This document shows positions 1,371 to 16,575 of a DNA stretch of 64,000 bases, in pieces (position 1 is the stretch's first letter; every line of letters begins with the position of its first letter). A program made the translations under genes and the position numbers. The DNA is from Cyanobacteria bacterium P01_A01_bin.123 (GTDB lineage: Bacteria; Cyanobacteriota; Cyanobacteriia; Phormidesmidales; Phormidesmidaceae): positions 64,001-128,000 of the forward strand of contig JBCBZT010000013.1 of assembly GCA_039815185.1 (NCBI GenBank). The letters run 5' to 3'. Below the pieces are notes generated by a model. That model was not told the DNA's origin and did not search any database. It saw only the letters and a program-made list of their open reading frames with translations.

Positions 1371-1483
1371 ACCTATAATTCGTTTAGTGTATTGGGTGAG
1401 TTTGCCTGCTGGTGCAGATTCATTTGAAGAGTCCGGTGACTAGCTCCACCGTGAATCAGGTGTCGCAATTGGGTAACAACCGT

Positions 1484-2995
1484 ATGCAAAACAATTTCTT
1501 TGACAGCTCCTTAGATCAAGACGCTATTAAGCAGCGGATTCGCGCACTAGAGAATAGCAAGGTCGGGTTTTACAGCGTCGGTCTTTATCCAGGGTCGCTG
1601 GCTTACAACTGCGCGATGCAAACAGATGGCAAGTTGTTGCTTTTGGCACCCCGACCAGGGCGGACACTGATGGGTGCCTTTTCCGACGATGCCCTGCAAG
1701 GGATGGATCCAGACCATGTTGAGAAGATGCACCACATGGCGGTCCATAGTGAAGGAAATCAGCAGGTGCCCAATACGTTGGCCTATCTGATTGAAAACTG
1801 TGAACTAGTAATTTTGAGCGCTAACAGTAAACACATTGAGCAAGATGTCCAAGAAGCCTATGCCCTGCGGATAGAACTCAACCGCGAACAGGTGGTTCTG
1901 GCCTGTTTGGCGGGTTCTTTTAGCCATGACTTCATCCAAGACGAATCCTATGTTTTATGTGAAAAGCAACCCAATCTTGCGTTTTTCTCAGGCTTTCATC
2001 GTCACGGGGCGCTGCGGAATCCGGTGGATAGCTTTACGGCTAATTTTTGCCATCCCAATGCGTTGACGGCGCTGCTTGGTGCCCGCGTGCTGGATAAGAT
2101 CTCGCCTAATATCCAGGTTTCACCGGGCATCCACAATGTTGAAGCGCAATATATCAAAGCGGCCAAAAACATCTCTTCCATTTTTGCTGGATTTGGCCAT
2201 GTCTATCATCGCGAAAATACAGGAACCCTGCCAACGCTGCTGACCCTATTGCTGGATCAATGTCTGGACCAGGCCGCGACAGTATCGATGTTTCGCCGCG
2301 ATCGCAAACGACTTTACCACCGTCAACCGATTGCACTGACGGAATTAGGCTATGGTGTGCAGCGGATTGAGGCGGTCTTGATTCGCGGTGGGGACGTGGA
2401 GAAAGCTCGTGATCACACCTTTGCTCAATTAACGGCGATGGTGGCTGATGTGCGTGGCAGTATGATGTTGCCCGCATCGGGTCGCCCGACCCGTAACTTT
2501 CAAGCCGGGCAGATTTTGGCGGAAATGATGCGGATTCATAAACGGGCTCCCCACGGGATTGAAGAATTTGAAACCTGGTGCGAAAAGGCGGGTTTGCGCA
2601 AAGGGGGATTAGAGGGCCTAAAAGCGCTACGCTACTGGCCCCAAATCGTACGGAAATATCAGATTCAGGTGCATGATGCCTCAATGGTGAATCTACTGTA
2701 CATGTTGCTGTATGGGAAACCGACGACTAAAGAATTAGCGTTTTCGGTGATGACCAAAAGTCGGGAGTTGTCAAACTACTGTCAAGAATCGGTGCGTCCA
2801 ACCCATAGCCGTAAGTATGCGGAGGCACTGCAAAACCTGGATAAGCCAGAAGCGTTGGAGTTTGTCGCTAATGCCGTGATTGCAGATAATGCCCGCAAAA
2901 CGCTGAATGACGATAGTTTCCTGGATGAAAATGAGGAAAAGGACAATACCCCGACTTACCTGCGGGCCATGAGTGTGATTGAAAATGTTTGGTAG
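1484..2995 (+). CDS. highly divergent NAD(P)-dependent glycerol-3-phosphate dehydrogenase (GpsA)-fold protein
   Basis: Ordered GpsA-like motifs: KVGFYSVGLYPGSLA, LIENCELVILSANS, AFFSG, KAAKNISSIFAG, TRNFQAGQ, EGLKAL. ATG at 1484 preferred over GTG at 1412. Confidence 0.6.
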   Translation: MQNNFFDSSLDQDAIKQRIRALENSKVGFYSVGLYPGSLAYNCAMQTDGKLLLLAPRPGRTLMGAFSDDALQGMDPDHVEKMHHMAVHSEGNQQVPNTLAYLIENCELVILSANSKHIEQDVQEAYALRIELNREQVVLACLAGSFSHDFIQDESYVLCEKQPNLAFFSGFHRHGALRNPVDSFTANFCHPNALTALLGARVLDKISPNIQVSPGIHNVEAQYIKAAKNISSIFAGFGHVYHRENTGTLPTLLTLLLDQCLDQAATVSMFRRDRKRLYHRQPIALTELGYGVQRIEAVLIRGGDVEKARDHTFAQLTAMVADVRGSMMLPASGRPTRNFQAGQILAEMMRIHKRAPHGIEEFETWCEKAGLRKGGLEGLKALRYWPQIVRKYQIQVHDASMVNLLYMLLYGKPTTKELAFSVMTKSRELSNYCQESVRPTHSRKYAEALQNLDKPEALEFVANAVIADNARKTLNDDSFLDENEEKDNTPTYLRAMSVIENVW

Positions 2996-3518: not shown

Positions 3519-4178
3519 TTACCGCCAAAGCAGAATTTCTTGCTTTCCTCGCGGAGAGAGTTCGTAAACGCCCAGGGATACTCTGTCAAACCACCCATAG
3601 ACATTTCTGTACAGAATATCTCTGGCCTTGGGCTCTTGGAGCGTTTTAGCAATCTGCGAAGCTTTGGTCGGCCCCTGTTGTTGTAAGAACTGGGCAATGG
3701 CCAATGCCTTTTGTCGGTAAGCGGTCATAACGCCCTGTCGCTTTTGCATGCCGCCCAGGTTCGGGTCGCCCACACGCTTAACGAATTCACCCAGTAGACG
3801 TGCTTGACGACGCTTCGAGATTCGAGGTTTATATTCGCCAGGATCAACCAGTACCTCTACGCTGCCGTGAGTCGAGTTCGGATCAATCACGACTAACCCT
3901 AGTCCTAGCATCTTGAGTAGCTTGAGAACACGCCGCCGTCGTTTGCTCAGCACTTTACATTGTTTAGGAATACCGATGTACACAGTCGGCGTCAGCGCCA
4001 GCCTTTCCACTGCCTGAAGGACGACATCGAGATTGAGAGACCGTTTGAGTTCTACAACAACAGGGGTTTCATCGCCCCGCACTGCCAGCACATCACAATC
4101 TTGAACTTCTCCTTTCACCGCATAATTTTGAGATTCAAGAAATCGCTTCAGGGGTAGATAAAGATCAGATTCCTTCAT
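3519..4178 (-). CDS. DUF2161 family putative PD-(D/E)XK-type protein
   Basis: MKESDLYLPLK..LE.Q.Y.VKGEV..CDV, VELK, GDPN.GG, TAYRQ.AL, NVYGWF.RV..G.Y.L motifs. Confidence 0.85.
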   Translation of the reverse strand: MKESDLYLPLKRFLESQNYAVKGEVQDCDVLAVRGDETPVVVELKRSLNLDVVLQAVERLALTPTVYIGIPKQCKVLSKRRRRVLKLLKMLGLGLVVIDPNSTHGSVEVLVDPGEYKPRISKRRQARLLGEFVKRVGDPNLGGMQKRQGVMTAYRQKALAIAQFLQQQGPTKASQIAKTLQEPKARDILYRNVYGWFDRVSLGVYELSPRGKQEILLWR

Positions 4179-5033: not shown

Positions 5034-5475
5034 TCATAATATAAATTCCCCACCCCAAACTATAGCTTCCTGTATTCTGTCAAAGCCAATTTTTTTAGCG
5101 ACTCGGATTGAACCAATATTTTGACTGTCGCATTCCCAATAGGGAGTAATATTGTGACTCAAACAATAATTCACAAAATGGACTGCTGTAGCGGTGGTAA
5201 TCCCCTGATTTTGATAAGCCTGAAGCGTCTCAATGCCAATGCCGCATTTTTTTGTGCTGACATATTCTGCGGTACACCAGAAAATAATGCTTTCCCCTAG
5301 TAATGCAACATAACCAAAGCCATTTTCACAAAACTTTTCTCGTGATGGCCACATCCATTCAATCTCAGATTTTAGTGTTTCACTCAGCAATAAAAGTGAG
5401 AATTATTTCCAGTTGAGGGTCTGGAAAATACTGTGTACATTTTCTTATTGCATTGAGCGGGATTTCTTCTATCAT
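5034..5475 (-). pseudogene. GNAT acetyltransferase pseudogene with an apparent internal deletion
   Basis: RBS GAGGGG plus ATG 5475 gives MIEEIPLNAIRKCTQYFPDPQLEIILTFIAE*. This is joined out of frame to a GNAT C-half (GIGIETLQAYQNQGI…YWECDSQNIGSIRVAKKIGF). Confidence 0.65.
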
Positions 5476-5679
5476 TGACTTCCCCTCATTTTTGGATTGA
5501 TATCACGCCCTAACTTGTATTTAATCTAATTTTTATTGTCCTAATCTGCCTAACATCTCTTATTGAGGTGGTTAGCGAGAGCTTGATTGCTATCTCTTCC
5601 TCTGGAGGGTGTTAGGCTATCGGATGGTTGTGCCTTTGCCAGGGAAACGCCCTTTTCACCGTTTCCCTGCTTAACACCT

Positions 5680-7743
5680 ATGTCTCTACTCGCGCTAAAT
5701 GTAACTAATGTGCGTCTTGCCCTAGAGTGTCCCCGGCTATTTTATTTGGGGCACCACGAAGGGGGTACAACCGTATTTCGATCCCCCTCTGAGGGCATGG
5801 GCATCGGCACCGCGTTTCATCAGGTGTCGGCAGACTGTGTGCGATCGCTCCTGCAAGACCCTAACCTCAAGCAACGACTTGAACCCGCTGTCTCCTCTGC
5901 AGCCGCAGGCCGACAGCGATCGCAGAAATTGTCTCAATGGCTGCGATCGCATCTGTATAAAACCGTCTTCTTCCCCTATCTGCAAAGCATCATCCGCACC
6001 GATGCCAGTCGAGCCAAAGCGATGGAAACCCTATGGCAAGCCCTGGGTCGTTTGGTAGATCGGTGGGCTACGTTGCTGGTGAACAACCGTCGGTTTTGCC
6101 CTGCGGCTGAAGTCGTCGGCAAAACCTTCATTGCCCAAGAACTCAGCGTTGATCATACCTTTACCCTACCCGATGGCAGCGCCCAACCCGTGCAGGGACG
6201 GCTTGACTGCCTGGTATACGACTTCGCCCATCGTCGCCTGTGCGTGGTGGAATACAAAACCTACCGCACTCCCGACAGTGCGCCCCAACTGGCTCAGGTC
6301 GCTCTCTACAGCAAACTGCTGCAATCACGAGTTGGCGTCCCGATTAACGCTGCCCTCTACAGCGTTTTACCCGATTGGCAAGAGCGCGCTTTCGTCTGGG
6401 AAGCACTAGAAGACTCCTGGAACCAGCTCATTCCCCAACGGTTGCAACTCATGCAGCAGTGGTTAACCTGGCACCCCGGCCAGCCCGATCCACCCCCAGA
6501 AACCCGCTACAAACATCTCTGCGACCTCTGCCCCCAACAGCAAAAATGCCAGCACTATTTTGCCAATCCAACCCTAAAAAGCCCACAACAACTAGACTTG
6601 CTCTCCCAACTTCACCCGAGTGGTGCTCGTAAGAAACGCGATCGCTCCCCCTCTCCCCCTCCCCCCCTCCCCCCCTCTCCTCACCCAACCGCCCCCGATC
6701 AAATCAACGCGATCGCCCTAAAACTCGTTCGCACCCTGCGCGCCTTCAACATTGGTGTGGATGCCCAAGGTACCGCGATCGCCCCGGCATTCATTCGCGT
6801 CAAGCTCAAACCCCAACTGGGTGTGAAGGTCAACTCGATTTTGAAGCTAACCGATGATTTGCGGGTGCAGTTGGGCCTCACCGCGCCACCCATGATTGCG
6901 CCGCAAGCCGGTTACGTCAGTGTCGACTTGCCCCGCCCCGATCGGCAAACCGCTGTGTTTGATTACTATGTTTCCGCTCAAGTGCTATCTCCTACCGCAC
7001 CCGTACAGATTGCCATTGGCGTCGATCTAGAAGGCAATCTAGTGGAAGCCGATCTCTCAGATGCCAATACCTGCCACTTTTTAGTCGGGGGGACGACGGG
7101 CAGTGGTAAAAGCGAATTTCTGCGATCGCTGTTGTTGAGCCTACTGGTGCGCCATTCTCCAGAAATGCTGCAAATTGCCCTGGTCGATCCCAAGCGCGTC
7201 ACCTTTCCTGAATTTGAAACTATGCCTTGGCTGCTAGAGCCAATTGTGAAAGATTCCGAGGGCGCGATCGCGCTGATGACCACCCTGATGGATGAAATGG
7301 ATCGGCGCTACCAGCGCTTTGAACAAAGTCGCTGCGCTGACCTCAGCCGCTACAACCAGCAGGCCAAAACCCCCATGCCCCGCATCGTCTGTATTTTTGA
7401 CGAGTACGCCGATCTTATGTCTGAAAAAGAAAGCAAGGCCGCGATCGAACAAAGTATCAAGCGCCTCGGGGCCATGGCTCGCGCCGCCGGCATTCACCTG
7501 ATCATCGCCACTCAACGCCCCGATGCCAAAGTCGTGACGCCCCTAATCCGCTCCAATTTGCCAGGACGAGTCGCCCTACGCACCGCTAGCGATGCCGATT
7601 CAGCTATCATTTTGGGTGGCAAACAGGGGGACGCCGTCAATCTGCTGGGGAAAGGCGACCTGCTCTACTTGAAGGGGGCACAGCTTTTGCGACTGCAAAG
7701 TCTATTTGCTCCCCAGATCGTCTTACAACAAATCGAAAAATGA
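5680..7743 (+). CDS. Cas4/RecB-like PD-(D/E)XK nuclease fused to an FtsK/SpoIIIE ATPase
   Basis: Nuclease part: ECPRLFY, GRLD…VEYKT, QVALY, CDLCPQQQKC. A Pro-rich linker follows. ATPase part: Walker A GTTGSGKS, VDPK, Walker B CIFDEYAD, RAAGIHLIIATQRP, LLGKGDLL. Confidence 0.85.
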   Translation: MSLLALNVTNVRLALECPRLFYLGHHEGGTTVFRSPSEGMGIGTAFHQVSADCVRSLLQDPNLKQRLEPAVSSAAAGRQRSQKLSQWLRSHLYKTVFFPYLQSIIRTDASRAKAMETLWQALGRLVDRWATLLVNNRRFCPAAEVVGKTFIAQELSVDHTFTLPDGSAQPVQGRLDCLVYDFAHRRLCVVEYKTYRTPDSAPQLAQVALYSKLLQSRVGVPINAALYSVLPDWQERAFVWEALEDSWNQLIPQRLQLMQQWLTWHPGQPDPPPETRYKHLCDLCPQQQKCQHYFANPTLKSPQQLDLLSQLHPSGARKKRDRSPSPPPPLPPSPHPTAPDQINAIALKLVRTLRAFNIGVDAQGTAIAPAFIRVKLKPQLGVKVNSILKLTDDLRVQLGLTAPPMIAPQAGYVSVDLPRPDRQTAVFDYYVSAQVLSPTAPVQIAIGVDLEGNLVEADLSDANTCHFLVGGTTGSGKSEFLRSLLLSLLVRHSPEMLQIALVDPKRVTFPEFETMPWLLEPIVKDSEGAIALMTTLMDEMDRRYQRFEQSRCADLSRYNQQAKTPMPRIVCIFDEYADLMSEKESKAAIEQSIKRLGAMARAAGIHLIIATQRPDAKVVTPLIRSNLPGRVALRTASDADSAIILGGKQGDAVNLLGKGDLLYLKGAQLLRLQSLFAPQIVLQQIEK

Positions 7744-13421: not shown

Positions 13422-14267
13422 ATGTGTCGATTACTGGGTTACTTGGGGCCATCCGTCTCCCTAGAGCATTTGCTCTATAAACCTGATCACTCCCTAATTG
13501 TGCAAAGCTACCAGCCCCGCGAGCTAGAAGTCGCCTTGCTCAATGCCGACGGCTTTGGGGTGGGCTGGTATCACCCCCAACGCAAAACCGCCCCCTTCAA
13601 TTACCGCAATACTCTACCCATTTGGAACGACGTTAACCTACCCCAGCTAAGCCGCTATATCGAGTCCAACTGTGTGCTGGCCTATATCCGCAGCGCCACG
13701 CCAGGACTAGCCATCGACATGAGCAACTGTCAGCCCTTTCAGCACGGCGCACTGACGTTCATTCACAACGGCTTTATTGAAAACTTTCGCCAGACGCTGT
13801 ATCGCCCCCTGCGCGATCGCTTGTGTGATACCGCCTATCACGCTATCCACGGCTTAACCGACTCAGAACATATCTTTGCCCTGCTGCTGCACGAACTAGA
13901 AACCCAACCGGGATGCTCCTTAGAAATGGCATTGAACCGGACGCTAATTCAATTAGCCAAACTAGCTGAGGAATACAACACCCGAATCGCCGCTAATATT
14001 CTGATTAGCGATGGCGATCGCTTGGTGGCCTGCCGCTTTGATACCCAGGATGATGGCCCATCATTCTACTGGCTGAGACATGCTCCTGGCCTACCCGATT
14101 CCGTCTTGTTCGCTTCAGAGCCTTTGTTTGAAGCGGATTGGGTGTCCTGTGCCCCGGCAACGATTTTTAGTGTTGATCGCAGCCTGGTGGTCAAACAACA
14201 GGCCCTTAATGCCCAGTCTACTGGAGCCCACAGCGTTGAATCTGCATCTCAAAGGAGCTTAGTGTGA
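13422..14267 (+). CDS. egtC: ergothioneine biosynthesis amidohydrolase (class II glutamine amidotransferase fold)
   Basis: N-terminal MCRLLGY, NADGFGVGWY, RSAT, HNG, TDSEH; operon with egtB and egtD. Confidence 0.9.
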   Translation: MCRLLGYLGPSVSLEHLLYKPDHSLIVQSYQPRELEVALLNADGFGVGWYHPQRKTAPFNYRNTLPIWNDVNLPQLSRYIESNCVLAYIRSATPGLAIDMSNCQPFQHGALTFIHNGFIENFRQTLYRPLRDRLCDTAYHAIHGLTDSEHIFALLLHELETQPGCSLEMALNRTLIQLAKLAEEYNTRIAANILISDGDRLVACRFDTQDDGPSFYWLRHAPGLPDSVLFASEPLFEADWVSCAPATIFSVDRSLVVKQQALNAQSTGAHSVESASQRSLV

Positions 14268-15454
14268 CCTTCGTTGAATCATCTGTTGACCGTTTTGGCC
14301 CCCCTCAGATTTCATCGACTTCCCGCAGTTTCTTAAAACAAGCCTTCACCGATTGCCGCCGTATGACCCTGGACATGGTGCAAGACTGCAATCGTGTCAC
14401 CCTCTACACCCAAGCTCATCCAGATTTCAGCCCCATTGGCTGGCATTTGGGCCACATTGCCTTTACCGAATCACTGTGGATCTTAGAACAGTTGGCGAGT
14501 CAACCCTGTCCGTTCCCTCAATATCGTCGATTATTCGCCGCTGACGGCTTGCCCAAAGCCGAGCGAGAAAAGTTGCCGGAATTAGCTGAGATTTTTGATT
14601 TCCTATCCACAGTCCGGCAACACGTATGGGATTATCTCGCGATCGCGCCTCTAGAACCTGCCCAATTACGCCTATGGCATTGGTTATTGCAGCATGAAAG
14701 CCAGCATGGCGAAACCATGGCCATGGTGATGGCCATGCATGGAGTGGGGGATCAGGGGTTAGGTAGGGACGCGATTCAGAATCCTGTGGATACGCTCCGC
14801 GAACGCATTCCCACAGACAGGAATTCCGACATCATGATTCAAATCCCAGCCGGGGAATTTGAGATGGGATATGGGGGTATTGATGCCATCGACAACGAGC
14901 GGCCAGTGCAACGGGTAACGGTAGACGCGTTTCAGATTGATCGGGCCTTGGTAACCCAGACTGCCTATCGCCAATTCATTGCCGCAGGGGGATACGATAA
15001 TGCCCAATGGTGGACGCCCGAAGGATGGGCCTGGTGCCAACAGGCACAGGTCAGACAACCGCTGTATTGGCGGGATGAGCCGGCTGACGATGCCCGCCCG
15101 GTTTGCGGCGTGAGTTGGTATGAAGCCGATGCCTATGCTCGGTTTATGGGTAAGCGGTTACCGACAGAAGCCGAGTGGGAGAAAGCCGCAAAGTGGGCGA
15201 TCGCGCAGGGGGATGAAACGGACTTCTTAGGCGATCGCTGGCAGTGGACAAACGCCTGGTTTGAACCCTACCCAAATTTTCAACCCTACCCTTATAAAGG
15301 CTATTCTCGGGTCTATTTTGATCAGGCTCACCGAGTGATGCGGGGCGGCAGTTGGGTCACGCGGCCTTGGTCGTTGCGGGCAACCTTTCGCAATTGGTAC
15401 CACCCCCATATGCAGCAAATGTTTACCGGCATCCGCTGCGCCCAGTCAATCTAA
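14264..15454 (+). CDS. egtB: ergothioneine sulfoxide synthase (DinB + FGE-sulfatase domains)
   Basis: WHLGH, HESQHGE iron motif, RLPTEAEWEKAA, RGGSW; 4-bp overlap with egtC. Confidence 0.88.
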   Translation: MTFVESSVDRFGPPQISSTSRSFLKQAFTDCRRMTLDMVQDCNRVTLYTQAHPDFSPIGWHLGHIAFTESLWILEQLASQPCPFPQYRRLFAADGLPKAEREKLPELAEIFDFLSTVRQHVWDYLAIAPLEPAQLRLWHWLLQHESQHGETMAMVMAMHGVGDQGLGRDAIQNPVDTLRERIPTDRNSDIMIQIPAGEFEMGYGGIDAIDNERPVQRVTVDAFQIDRALVTQTAYRQFIAAGGYDNAQWWTPEGWAWCQQAQVRQPLYWRDEPADDARPVCGVSWYEADAYARFMGKRLPTEAEWEKAAKWAIAQGDETDFLGDRWQWTNAWFEPYPNFQPYPYKGYSRVYFDQAHRVMRGGSWVTRPWSLRATFRNWYHPHMQQMFTGIRCAQSI

Positions 15455-15519
15455 GTCCTCCTTAAGGGAACGTTCATCCGTAAGTGTCAGAATAGTAGCG
15501 ATCCCCTGACAAAATAACT

Positions 15520-16575
15520 ATGCAAGATTCCAATGCTTCTGGGACTGTTGACCATGGGCAGTCCTCTGCTACGTCTGAAAGCCTGACACCATCGTATCTG
15601 GCCAACCGATTTACGCTAGACCTGTTGGCAGCCGATGATACGGGGCCAGATGCAGGCCAAGAGGTGATTGATGGGCTAACTCAGCGCCCCAAAGCATTGC
15701 CGCCTAAATTTTTCTATGACGATCGGGGGTCTGAGCTGTTTGAACAAATTACCCAACTGCCGGAGTATTACCTCACTCGTACTGAAACGGGGATTCTAAA
15801 ACACTCTGCCGCTGCGATCGCGACTTTAACGGGCCCCTGCGATTTGATTGAACTCGGCAGCGGTAGTTCCACCAAAACCCGATTTTTGCTCGACGCTTAC
15901 CAACAGTTGGGCCTGGCTTGCCGATATATCCCCGTAGACGTCAGCGGCGGCATTTTAGAGAGCAGTGCCAAACAGCTTTTACACGACTACCCCGATCTAC
16001 AAGTTCATGGACTGGTTGGCACCTATGAGGCAGCGTTGCAACATTTGCCGCCTGCGGCCTTGCCCAAGCGGATGATCGCCTTTATTGGCAGTACCTTAGG
16101 CAATTTATCCCCTGCTCGCTGTGCCGAATTTTTGCAGCAGGTTGCAGACGCGTTGAATCCTGGCGATTACTTTCTACTCGGTGTCGATTTGCACAAAGCC
16201 CGTGATCCGCTGGAAGCTGCCTATAACGATAGCCAGGGCATCACTGTCGACTTTAATCTCAATATGCTAAGTCATCTGAACTGGCGCTTTGGGGGCAATT
16301 TTAATTTGAGCCAGTTTGAACATCAAGCGTTTTATAACGCAGCCGAACGGCAAGTCGAAATTTACATCAAAAGCTTGATCGATCAGCAAGTGACGCTGTC
16401 GGATCTGGATTTGACTGTTGAATTTTCCGAAAATGAATGCCTGCTCAGCGAAATTTCTCGCAAGTTTGATTTAGCAACGATGCCCCAAATGCTGGGTACT
16501 CACCAGCTTAAGGTGTTAGAAAAATTCACCGATGAAAAACAGTGGTTTGGACTAATTCTCAGCCAAAAAGGGTAA
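15520..16575 (+). CDS. egtD: L-histidine N-alpha-methyltransferase
   Basis: PKFFYDDRGSELFEQITQLPEYYLTRTE, ELGSGSSTKT, AYNDSQG, EISRKF. Confidence 0.93.
   Translation: MQDSNASGTVDHGQSSATSESLTPSYLANRFTLDLLAADDTGPDAGQEVIDGLTQRPKALPPKFFYDDRGSELFEQITQLPEYYLTRTETGILKHSAAAIATLTGPCDLIELGSGSSTKTRFLLDAYQQLGLACRYIPVDVSGGILESSAKQLLHDYPDLQVHGLVGTYEAALQHLPPAALPKRMIAFIGSTLGNLSPARCAEFLQQVADALNPGDYFLLGVDLHKARDPLEAAYNDSQGITVDFNLNMLSHLNWRFGGNFNLSQFEHQAFYNAAERQVEIYIKSLIDQQVTLSDLDLTVEFSENECLLSEISRKFDLATMPQMLGTHQLKVLEKFTDEKQWFGLILSQKG

Follow-up and report, generated by a model that had tools for sequence, protein, structure and literature searches.

A nuclease-FtsK fusion gene in a cyanobacterial genome is the third gene of a split RcaD-RcaG cassette

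We analyzed a stretch of 64,000 nucleotides (nt), called the window here, from Cyanobacteria bacterium P01_A01_bin.123 (assembly GCA_039815185.1, contig JBCBZT010000013.1, positions 64,001 to 128,000; window base 1 is G000:C97:64001 in our own numbering). The gene under study encodes a protein of 687 amino acids (aa), P0001, which joins a PD-(D/E)XK nuclease to an FtsK-type motor. An earlier reading made from the sequence alone, called the sequence-only reading here, had described it as a standalone translocase-nuclease. We found that it is not standalone, but the third gene of an rcaD-rcaG-(exonuclease)-nuclease-FtsK cassette that is split in this genome. The gene and the parts of its protein are as follows.

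5680..7743, + strand: nuclease-FtsK fusion gene (P0001, 687 aa), an open frame; third gene of the RcaD-RcaG cassette, in the exonuclease-less form
5695..6552, + strand: PD-(D/E)XK nuclease domain with a split four-cysteine iron-staple (C17/C281/C284/C290), H47, D176, E191-x-K193 and Q206-xxx-Y210 (Pfam, alignment and fold)
6568..6696, + strand: proline-rich disordered linker, residues 297-339 (predicted local distance difference test, pLDDT, <50; poor conservation)
6688..6933, + strand: FtsK alpha domain, residues 337-418 (PF17854, E 8.9e-9; aligns to P. aeruginosa FtsK)
6988..7740, + strand: FtsK beta RecA-like motor with Walker A GTTGSGKS (471-478), Walker B DE (574-575), Q612 and R624 (profiles, alignment and fold)

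Three Pfam domains were over their cut-offs in P0001: PDDEXK_1 at residues 6-291 (E 1.5e-13), FtsK_alpha at 337-418 and FtsK_SpoIIIE at 437-614. The sequence-only reading did not mention the alpha domain; its account of a nuclease, a proline linker and an intact FtsK ATPase in one polypeptide is borne out by these domains and by the conserved motifs. Among the profiles that it proposed as a check, PDDEXK_1 and FtsK_SpoIIIE passed, whereas Cas_Cas4 stayed under its cut-off. A TTG at 5587 is a possible upstream alternative start; alignments with homologues begin at residue 4-5 of the protein that starts at the ATG. In an alignment of 120 proteins, P0001 counted in, C17 was kept in 117, and C281/C284/C290, D176, K193, Y210, K477 of Walker A and D574/E575 of Walker B were kept in all 120, so that the one N-terminal and three C-terminal cysteines seen earlier are confirmed. 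Residue 191 was E in 114 of these proteins and D in 6, and Q206 was invariant in a separate 55-row alignment.

The predicted model of P0001 had a pLDDT of 80. In comparisons made with it, the motor resembled FtsK structures (2iut, E 4e-28; 2ius, Z 31.5, root-mean-square deviation (rmsd) 4.2, 337 aligned), and the closest folds to the modeled nuclease domain (residues 1-300) were AdnA (Z 13.8, rmsd 4.0, 231 aligned) and Cas4 (8d3l, Z 12.7). Further matches were AddB (Z 12.6), ACE1 (Z 11.9, over residues 1-292) and Exo5 within Z 11.9-13.8. The alpha-beta motor and Walker A/B of canonical FtsK/SpoIIIE are present, but the membrane and gamma domains are not, as had been stated before: the maximum 19-residue hydropathy is 1.33, which gives no transmembrane helix, no FtsK gamma or 4TM family of Pfam was found at E<=0.1, and the C-terminus is the end of the motor. 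Judged from its sequence, P0001 is an AddB/AdnA/Cas4-type four-cysteine nuclease joined by a proline linker to a membrane-free FtsK alpha-beta motor, and its conserved residues suggest iron-sulfur (Fe-S) binding and nuclease activity.

The earlier label of a Cas4-like nuclease holds for the 1+3 cysteine layout around a RecB-type nuclease fold, which is the domain-level feature of the iron-staple nucleases of Cas4 and AddB. Cas4, solo-Cas4 and ACE1 share this layout and a D-(D/E)xK site with P0001. However, P0001 does not score as Cas4 itself (Cas_Cas4, 16 bits versus a cut-off of 22.7; TIGR00372, 19.4 versus 65). No link to CRISPR or Argonaute was found, in agreement with the sequence-only reading on the former: cas1 is not on this contig (two copies are elsewhere in the genome), the window has no CRISPR-like repeats or array, and the genome has no Piwi match.

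To place the fusion among its relatives, we examined the best 80 of its 341 matches. An ATPase gene of ~670 aa was located upstream of the fusion in 70 of these loci, with a gap of <=300 nt in 68, 313 nt in one and 5.9 kb in one; in the remaining 10, the fusion gene starts <=108 nt from a contig edge. The locus with the 5.9 kb gap, L107, is a second split cassette, in which four open reading frames separate rcaG from the fusion. A multi-winged-helix gene of ~280 aa, which is RcaD-like, was also held by 61 of the 80 loci. In 51 loci the fusion carries an N-terminal DEDD 3'-5' exonuclease with its DEDD residues kept, a domain that is absent from the P0001 clade. Because the ATPase gene is upstream in 70 of the 80 loci and both partners are intact in this genome, P0001 cannot be called standalone; it is a translocase-nuclease, as proposed before, but not a self-contained one, being the effector gene of the cassette. 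No protein was found in which the nuclease and motor are also fused with the ATPase, which is a weak negative (the longer relatives were two matches, both tetratricopeptide repeat (TPR) fusions). The cassette is modular and is seen in full, exonuclease-less, split, pair-only and dead-nuclease states.

Several loci show further arrangements. L052, L055, L070, L136, L137 and L138 carry rcaG in duplicate, in some cases in the order rcaD-rcaG-rcaG at a second location. Elaborated cassettes with a Ser/Thr kinase inserted in the fusion and extra free nuclease copies are found at L114:7508-10873, L115:816-9931, P0121 and P0122, which also show exonuclease-YbjN, kinase-trypsin and TPR-fused forms. L116, L117 and L118 encode paralogous FtsK alpha-beta proteins of 550-740 aa with different N-termini, in unrelated gene clusters.

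In this genome both partners are intact on the same contig, to the left of the window, and a spacer of unrelated genes keeps rcaG and the fusion 6849 nt apart.

G000:C97:59747-60592 (L111:7747-8592; outside the window, 3.4-4.3 kb left of window base 1), + strand: rcaD-like gene, 281 aa, predicted multi-winged-helix DNA binder
G000:C97:60605-62830 (L111:8605-10830; outside the window, 1.2-3.4 kb left of window base 1), + strand: rcaG-like gene, 741 aa, Orc/Cdc6-type AAA+ ATPase with a middle domain like a restriction endonuclease (REase) but without catalytic residues, and a C-terminal winged helix
1..5679, no single strand: window part of the spacer, with an aminotransferase gene end, a 255-aa membrane protein, a 527-aa unknown, a 164-aa membrane protein, DUF2161, a 196-aa unknown and a GNAT fragment; gene content varies among strains

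The variable region with DUF2161 (3519-4178) and a decayed gene (the GNAT fragment, 5034-5390) that the sequence-only reading pointed to is thus present; it is the insert that split the cassette and is not clearly a defense island. The spacer is poor in the GCGATCGC repeat: two sites were counted in its 6849 nt and eight in the 2064-nt fusion, versus 1.12 per kb genome-wide. No convincing flanking repeats or target-site duplication were found around the spacer, and a promoter and terminator scan was uninformative, with fewer sites than shuffles. We rejected an assembly artefact as the cause of the split. A contig of run X2 covers L111:11133-20000 continuously; a contig of run X5, from a different study, extends from 51 nt past the end of the ATPase gene into the fusion and has a spacer ~1.3 kb shorter; and G350:C143 has the same upstream genes at 97% identity, although in the comparison, which covered four of ten runs, no single contig spans both rcaG and the fusion. 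In trees (all trees of this work were made with FastTree), the RcaG and the fusion of this genome each sit beside the same named lineage, and thus the partners have descended together.

Two observations concern the surroundings. An N6/N4 DNA methyltransferase and a DUF3800 gene adjoin rcaD (L111:5817-7502), and upstream of rcaD in L066, L087 and L101 there are methyltransferases 64-70% identical to this one. The 527-aa protein of the spacer (window 1412-2995) has no family over cut-off and a weak glycerol-3-phosphate dehydrogenase C-terminal match, and is kept in a related strain.

The ~280-aa partner family gives weak winged-helix matches along its length and is named 'transcription factor RcaD' by Atlas and NCBI. 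The RcaD-named proteins of NCBI are 37-49% identical to the 281-aa protein of this genome. Matches with this name lie on contigs that agree in organism and length with those of loci L047, L077 and L081; P0374 ('unclassified Tolypothrix') has 285 aa, the published RcaD length. The cassette proteins are candidate orthologues of those of PCC 7601. According to the sections of PMC2799420 used here, RcaD from PCC 7601 both binds the cpc2 promoter and affects red-light operons, RcaG, encoded downstream of rcaD, is a putative ATPase proposed to aid this binding, and a Lyngbya relative of RcaD bound DNA promiscuously, control DNA included (section 8). The RcaD-RcaG genes of Calothrix/Tolypothrix PCC 7601 (Noubir et al. 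2002, via PMC2799420) have the same order as in the cassette, with the RcaD family first and then the ATPase. They are described as regulators of phycobiliprotein operons, and these sections do not mention a downstream nuclease-FtsK gene.

The structure of RcaG was modeled for the orthologue of G303, which is 59% identical to that of this genome (pLDDT 91, predicted template-modeling score 0.91). The top Foldseek/VIA matches of this model were ORC/Cdc6 (1fnn, Z 12.6, rmsd 3.9, 244 aligned), and TnsC and BrxC come out equal to them to within about 1 Z. Within the full-length model, residues 420-550 show a REase-like order of helices and strands, the nearest named folds being Mrr_cat endonucleases with TM-scores of 0.44-0.49, under the bar; no conserved D..(D/E)xK motif was found in the alignment of this middle domain. 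The C-terminal residues 589-665 of the model match winged helices, and Walker B reads FDN/FDQ. No PADLOC model, including those of Ssp and Dnd, matches RcaD or RcaG. Distant relatives of the ATPase form 1891 clusters at E<=0.001.

Rakesh, Aravind and Krishnan (2024, PMC10853773) predicted computationally that Orc/CDC6-coupled 'HerA/FtsK capture systems' act against invaders, and the model is repeated in bioRxiv 2025.10.09.681413 (both as given in the parts used here). The features given for them (PMC10853773, section 22) that the cassette shares are an Orc/Cdc6 ATPase with a C-terminal winged helix-turn-helix (wHTH), a predicted active REase, an FtsK protein with an alpha domain, a multi-wHTH gene and an optional 3'-5' exonuclease on the FtsK protein; the inactive REase that they have inserted in the ATPase may have a counterpart in the middle domain of RcaG. 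Here, the AAA+ ATPase corresponds to the modeled RcaG, 6.85 kb from the fusion. The active REase probably corresponds to the nuclease domain, with catalytic residues kept in 114-120 of the 120 proteins, and the alpha domain and motor to the rest of the fusion (the exonuclease being fused in the 51 loci noted above), while the RcaD-like gene, with its weak wHTH matches, supplies the multi-wHTH component in 61 of the 80 loci and in this genome. With these four defining features found by sequence or fold, the cassette belongs to the predicted capture-system kind. The main text of PMC10853773 has no match for 'cyanobacteri', 'Cas4' or 'RecB', and the parts of it considered describe neither the Fe-S staple nor a link to RcaD/RcaG, nor any split, pair-only or dead-nuclease form; the split locus and the pair-only and pseudonuclease states are additions of the present analysis. 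The same source calls the neighborhoods of capture systems mobile, whereas the cassette here is chromosomal and largely vertical.

SspFGH and DndFGH are likewise modules of three genes, the last of which encodes a large protein that carries an FtsK-like motor at its C-terminus, and the best PADLOC match of our motor is SspH. However, the likeness of SspH/DndH to P0001 is restricted to the motor (Z 18.5 for the DndH C-domain against the predicted model), and no SspF/G or DndF/G partners and no phosphorothioate genes were found among the neighbors scanned. Genuine cyanobacterial SspH proteins of about 1750-1815 aa occur separately with sspF/G/A/D (L119-L122), and PADLOC confirmed SspF/G/H/A/D for the genes of L119 and L120. 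The idea that cyanobacterial FtsK proteins of 1750-1800 aa are nuclease-motor-ATPase fusions was rejected, as those scanned are SspH. AddB and AdnA share with P0001 an iron-staple RecB-family nuclease driven by an ATP motor; their motor (AddAB/AdnAB) is a superfamily 1 helicase, whereas that of P0001 would be an FtsK ring with the nuclease fused to it, plus AAA+ and wHTH partners. HerA-NurA is a ring translocase that feeds a nuclease.

The distribution was studied in 151 genomes of the class that are at least 95% complete, with RcaG orthologues defined by E<1e-60. A fusion orthologue was found in 19 genomes, an RcaG orthologue in 30 and both in 18; the single fusion genome without an RcaG orthologue (1/19) is a contig-edge case. 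Another 12 matches to the fusion profile were remnants, paralogues or SspH-sized proteins, and 10 additional ATPase matches were weak. The fusion is mostly single-copy and chromosomal, and broken copies occur in several genomes. In sum, the cassette is chromosomal, patchy, largely vertically inherited and weakly tied to defense genes.

Two reduced states were found. At the 12 rcaG loci without the fusion (L124-L135), rcaD adjoins rcaG in 11, surroundings are mostly housekeeping, and the Walker motifs are kept; on the RcaG tree these loci fall into three or more separate positions. The genes behind rcaG are mostly housekeeping or signaling genes, with one RloB/AAA_21 pair. Some of the 12 genomes are fragmented drafts. 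Five of the 12 were rechecked: FtsK did not pass its cut-off in any of them, and a search for the nuclease domain, which had no positive control, was negative. In family f3, a separate nuclease domain of ~300 aa was present in 15 of 114 genomes (genera g73 8/8, g202 6/6, g197 1/1; loci L154-L159, L172-L180). It follows rcaD-rcaG in 14 of these loci, and in the other it lies where a contig starts. All 15 of these motor-less nucleases keep the four cysteines and lose H47, E191 and K193, and D176 is lost in 14. The pairwise ratio of nonsynonymous to synonymous substitution rates (dN/dS) among six was 0.24-0.37. Five of their genomes were checked and gave just short P-loop matches to PF01580, two of them marginally over cut-off. 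Since the six dead-nuclease loci placed on the RcaG tree form one clade, the loss of catalysis was one event. The f3 protein is a candidate for a catalytically dead Fe-S pseudonuclease under purifying selection.

Some other features of the genome are recorded here. Two solo PDDEXK_1 proteins of ~270 aa are encoded at G000:C94:61376-62083 and C39:86816-87535, and a 564-aa frame on C129 matches both PDDEXK_1 and Cas1. At 13422-16575 of the window are three adjacent genes (amidotransferase, sulfoxide synthase and methyltransferase) which, by eye, we take to resemble an ergothioneine-type cluster.

Use in defense or DNA processing, as the sequence-only reading had it, is still the best guess. We give about an even chance to the more specific reading that P0001 is the effector of a loader-directed, three-part translocase-nuclease against invading DNA, which acts in trans with its partners 7 kb upstream. 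The tandem winged helices of RcaD would bind DNA with loose specificity, as shown for relatives in the literature. RcaG, with its AAA+ module, putative dead endonuclease domain and winged helix in the predicted fold, would assemble on that DNA and recruit or load the fusion. By comparison with FtsK, the alpha-beta part would form a soluble ring that pumps double-stranded DNA, and we propose that the loader sets the start and direction of pumping, because the gamma domain and the membrane anchor are absent. The tethered Fe-S nuclease domains may hold on to the end of the DNA and cleave the strands that the motor drives by them, in the manner of HerA-NurA or AddAB; for HerA-NurA, end melting by the motor has been proposed. 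Most relatives add the DEDD 3'-5' exonuclease, which the P0001 lineage lacks. Because ACE1-type nucleases admit single strands only (PMC12094033, in part), the motor here would have to melt the DNA end. The likeliest target would be plasmid, conjugated, transformed or phage DNA.

Several results agree with such a role. Among them are the cassette order in 70 of the 80 loci, the RcaG orthologue in 18 of the 19 fusion genomes, the intact partners in this genome, the conserved catalytic motifs and the match to the predicted capture systems. The trees of RcaD, RcaG and the nuclease have lengths of 16.2, 17.3 and 14.3, versus 7.2 for the motor. In 49 single-copy loci, well-supported splits of the motor tree were contradicted by the RcaG tree in 8 of 20 cases and by the RcaD tree in 2 of 20. 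The patchiness, the broken copies, the fast evolution of RcaD, RcaG and the nuclease and the conflict between the RcaG and motor trees fit a conflict system. SspFGH, whose SspH resembles the motor, inflicts damage on unmodified DNA and prevents phages from replicating (PMC8092258, in part). When 138 dereplicated neighbor genes were compared with 144 control genes of this genome, PADLOC matches of >150 bits were found for 9 and 0, respectively, with a threshold that was chosen afterwards.

Other observations weigh against a role in defense. At the preset E<=1e-15, defense-model hits were 16 of 138 for neighbors and 9 of 144 for controls (p = 0.14), a weak enrichment in the neighborhood check that the sequence-only reading had proposed; counted by slots, there were ~18 hits in 253 neighbor slots, with one cluster missed by name match. 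The cassette of homologues is often among housekeeping genes. A ParA gene is directly downstream, within 700 nt, in 20 of the 80 loci, and glycosyltransferases, isoleucyl-tRNA synthetase and 6-phosphogluconate dehydrogenase recur as further neighbors. Just one of 72,556 plasmid records carried the fusion (as a whole cassette), and of eight viral loci with the motor none had the nuclease. The fusion tree (72 rows) broadly follows host lineages, as read from printed names. No self/non-self mark tied to the cassette was found: a methyltransferase like the one adjoining rcaD occurs in 3 of the 80 loci, and phosphorothioate genes were missing among the neighbors scanned. Because 12 of the 30 RcaG genomes keep RcaG although they have no fusion, and 15 others combine it with a dead nuclease, rcaD-rcaG have a use for which cutting is not required; published work on RcaD/RcaG points to transcription (PMC2799420, sections used). 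No study of the fusion and no experiment on any third gene was found in a literature search from which subscription papers were mostly excluded.

The same machine may instead work on host DNA, as an optional device for end resection, fork rescue or chromosome clean-up in cyanobacteria without canonical FtsK and RecBCD/AddAB. We regard this as a real possibility, although an unlikely one. The nuclease fold is nearest to the resection enzymes AdnA and AddB, the cassette is chromosomal, mostly single-copy and largely vertical, and ParA follows it in 20 of the 80 loci. RecBCD and AddAB are absent from most cyanobacteria (PMC12094033, in part), no RecB match reaches 1e-40 in this genome, and full-length RecB is found in all 12 genomes of family f18, none of which has the cassette. 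However, most RecB-less genomes manage without the fusion, which is present in 19 of the 139 genomes outside f18; on this count an obligatory RecBCD substitute was rejected. The broken copies and the inactivated nuclease of one lineage also speak against it.

A related and doubtful conjecture is that cyanobacteria domesticated an ORC-like loader, RcaD-RcaG, which puts a ring of membrane-free FtsK-nuclease onto the DNA of the host itself. This loader would have lost the motor repeatedly, and in one lineage the dead Fe-S nuclease would have stayed on as a subunit for docking or redox sensing. RcaD and RcaG, described as 'chromatic-adaptation regulators', would thus be a defense machine on its way to becoming a chromosomal regulator, with the split locus here as an intermediate; we consider this unlikely.

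It is more improbable that RcaD-RcaG is primarily a DNA-binding or remodeling module, regulatory or nucleoid-related, to which the third gene is accessory, with the Fe-S domain docking on DNA or RcaG and the motor clearing proteins. The binding of RcaD to the cpc2 promoter and the proposed aid of RcaG (PMC2799420, sections used) are in its favor, as are the fusion-less pairs, which have intact Walker motifs and recur at three or more positions of the RcaG tree, and the dead nucleases that keep their cysteines, lose Lys, Glu and His and evolve at low dN/dS. However, the RcaD relative bound control DNA promiscuously (same source), the 120 full fusions show hardly any variation in the active site, and the six dead copies placed on the tree form one clade and hence one event.

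The detached gene here could also be a remnant heading for loss, as in the lineages with rcaD-rcaG alone, which is very unlikely. Although 6.85 kb of strain-variable genes separate P0001 from the operon and third-gene loss has been repeated, its frame is open with every motif intact, P0002 is a relative 90% identical to it, and contigs from another study keep the gene. Even less credit can be given to a self-sufficient single-protein translocase-nuclease, the version of the sequence-only reading. A transcript shared with rcaD-rcaG is difficult, as several spacer genes are on the opposite strand to the cassette, and L107 is a second split locus; yet the only fusion without RcaG among the 151 genomes is the contig-edge case, and the partners are intact on the same contig. 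A housekeeping FtsK that couples septation to chromosome-dimer resolution has almost no probability left and is largely refuted, in line with the sequence-only reading: P0001 is the sole FtsK-length PF01580 match in its genome, has the alpha domain, and has relatives that databases name DNA translocase FtsK, but it lacks transmembrane helices and gamma, its equivalog score is 162 versus a cut-off of 1566, the family profile finds nothing at 1e-10 in 120 of the 151 genomes, and, far from being universal, the fusion is in just 19, while gamma (PF09397) is over cut-off in none of the 151 and has no match in this genome. Among literature tags for 'cyanobacterial FtsK', Sll0284 (sll0284) and Alr3799 (alr3799) were found to be of the YjgR/HerA clade, and All7666 (all7666) is plasmid-borne; none of the three was shown to be of the fusion family, and all were set aside.

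Cyanobacterial 'ftsK' annotations of the fusion family are not divisome genes. The natural deletion series of full, exonuclease-less, split, pair-only and dead-nuclease forms makes the predicted 'capture' mechanism directly testable. If P0001 is indeed the effector of a loader-directed translocase-nuclease against invading DNA, the two-decade-old phenotypes of RcaD/RcaG would have to be reinterpreted as the effects of a DNA-processing complex, and many filamentous cyanobacteria would carry an unrecognized barrier to foreign DNA, with consequences for how tractable they are genetically and how they resist phages.

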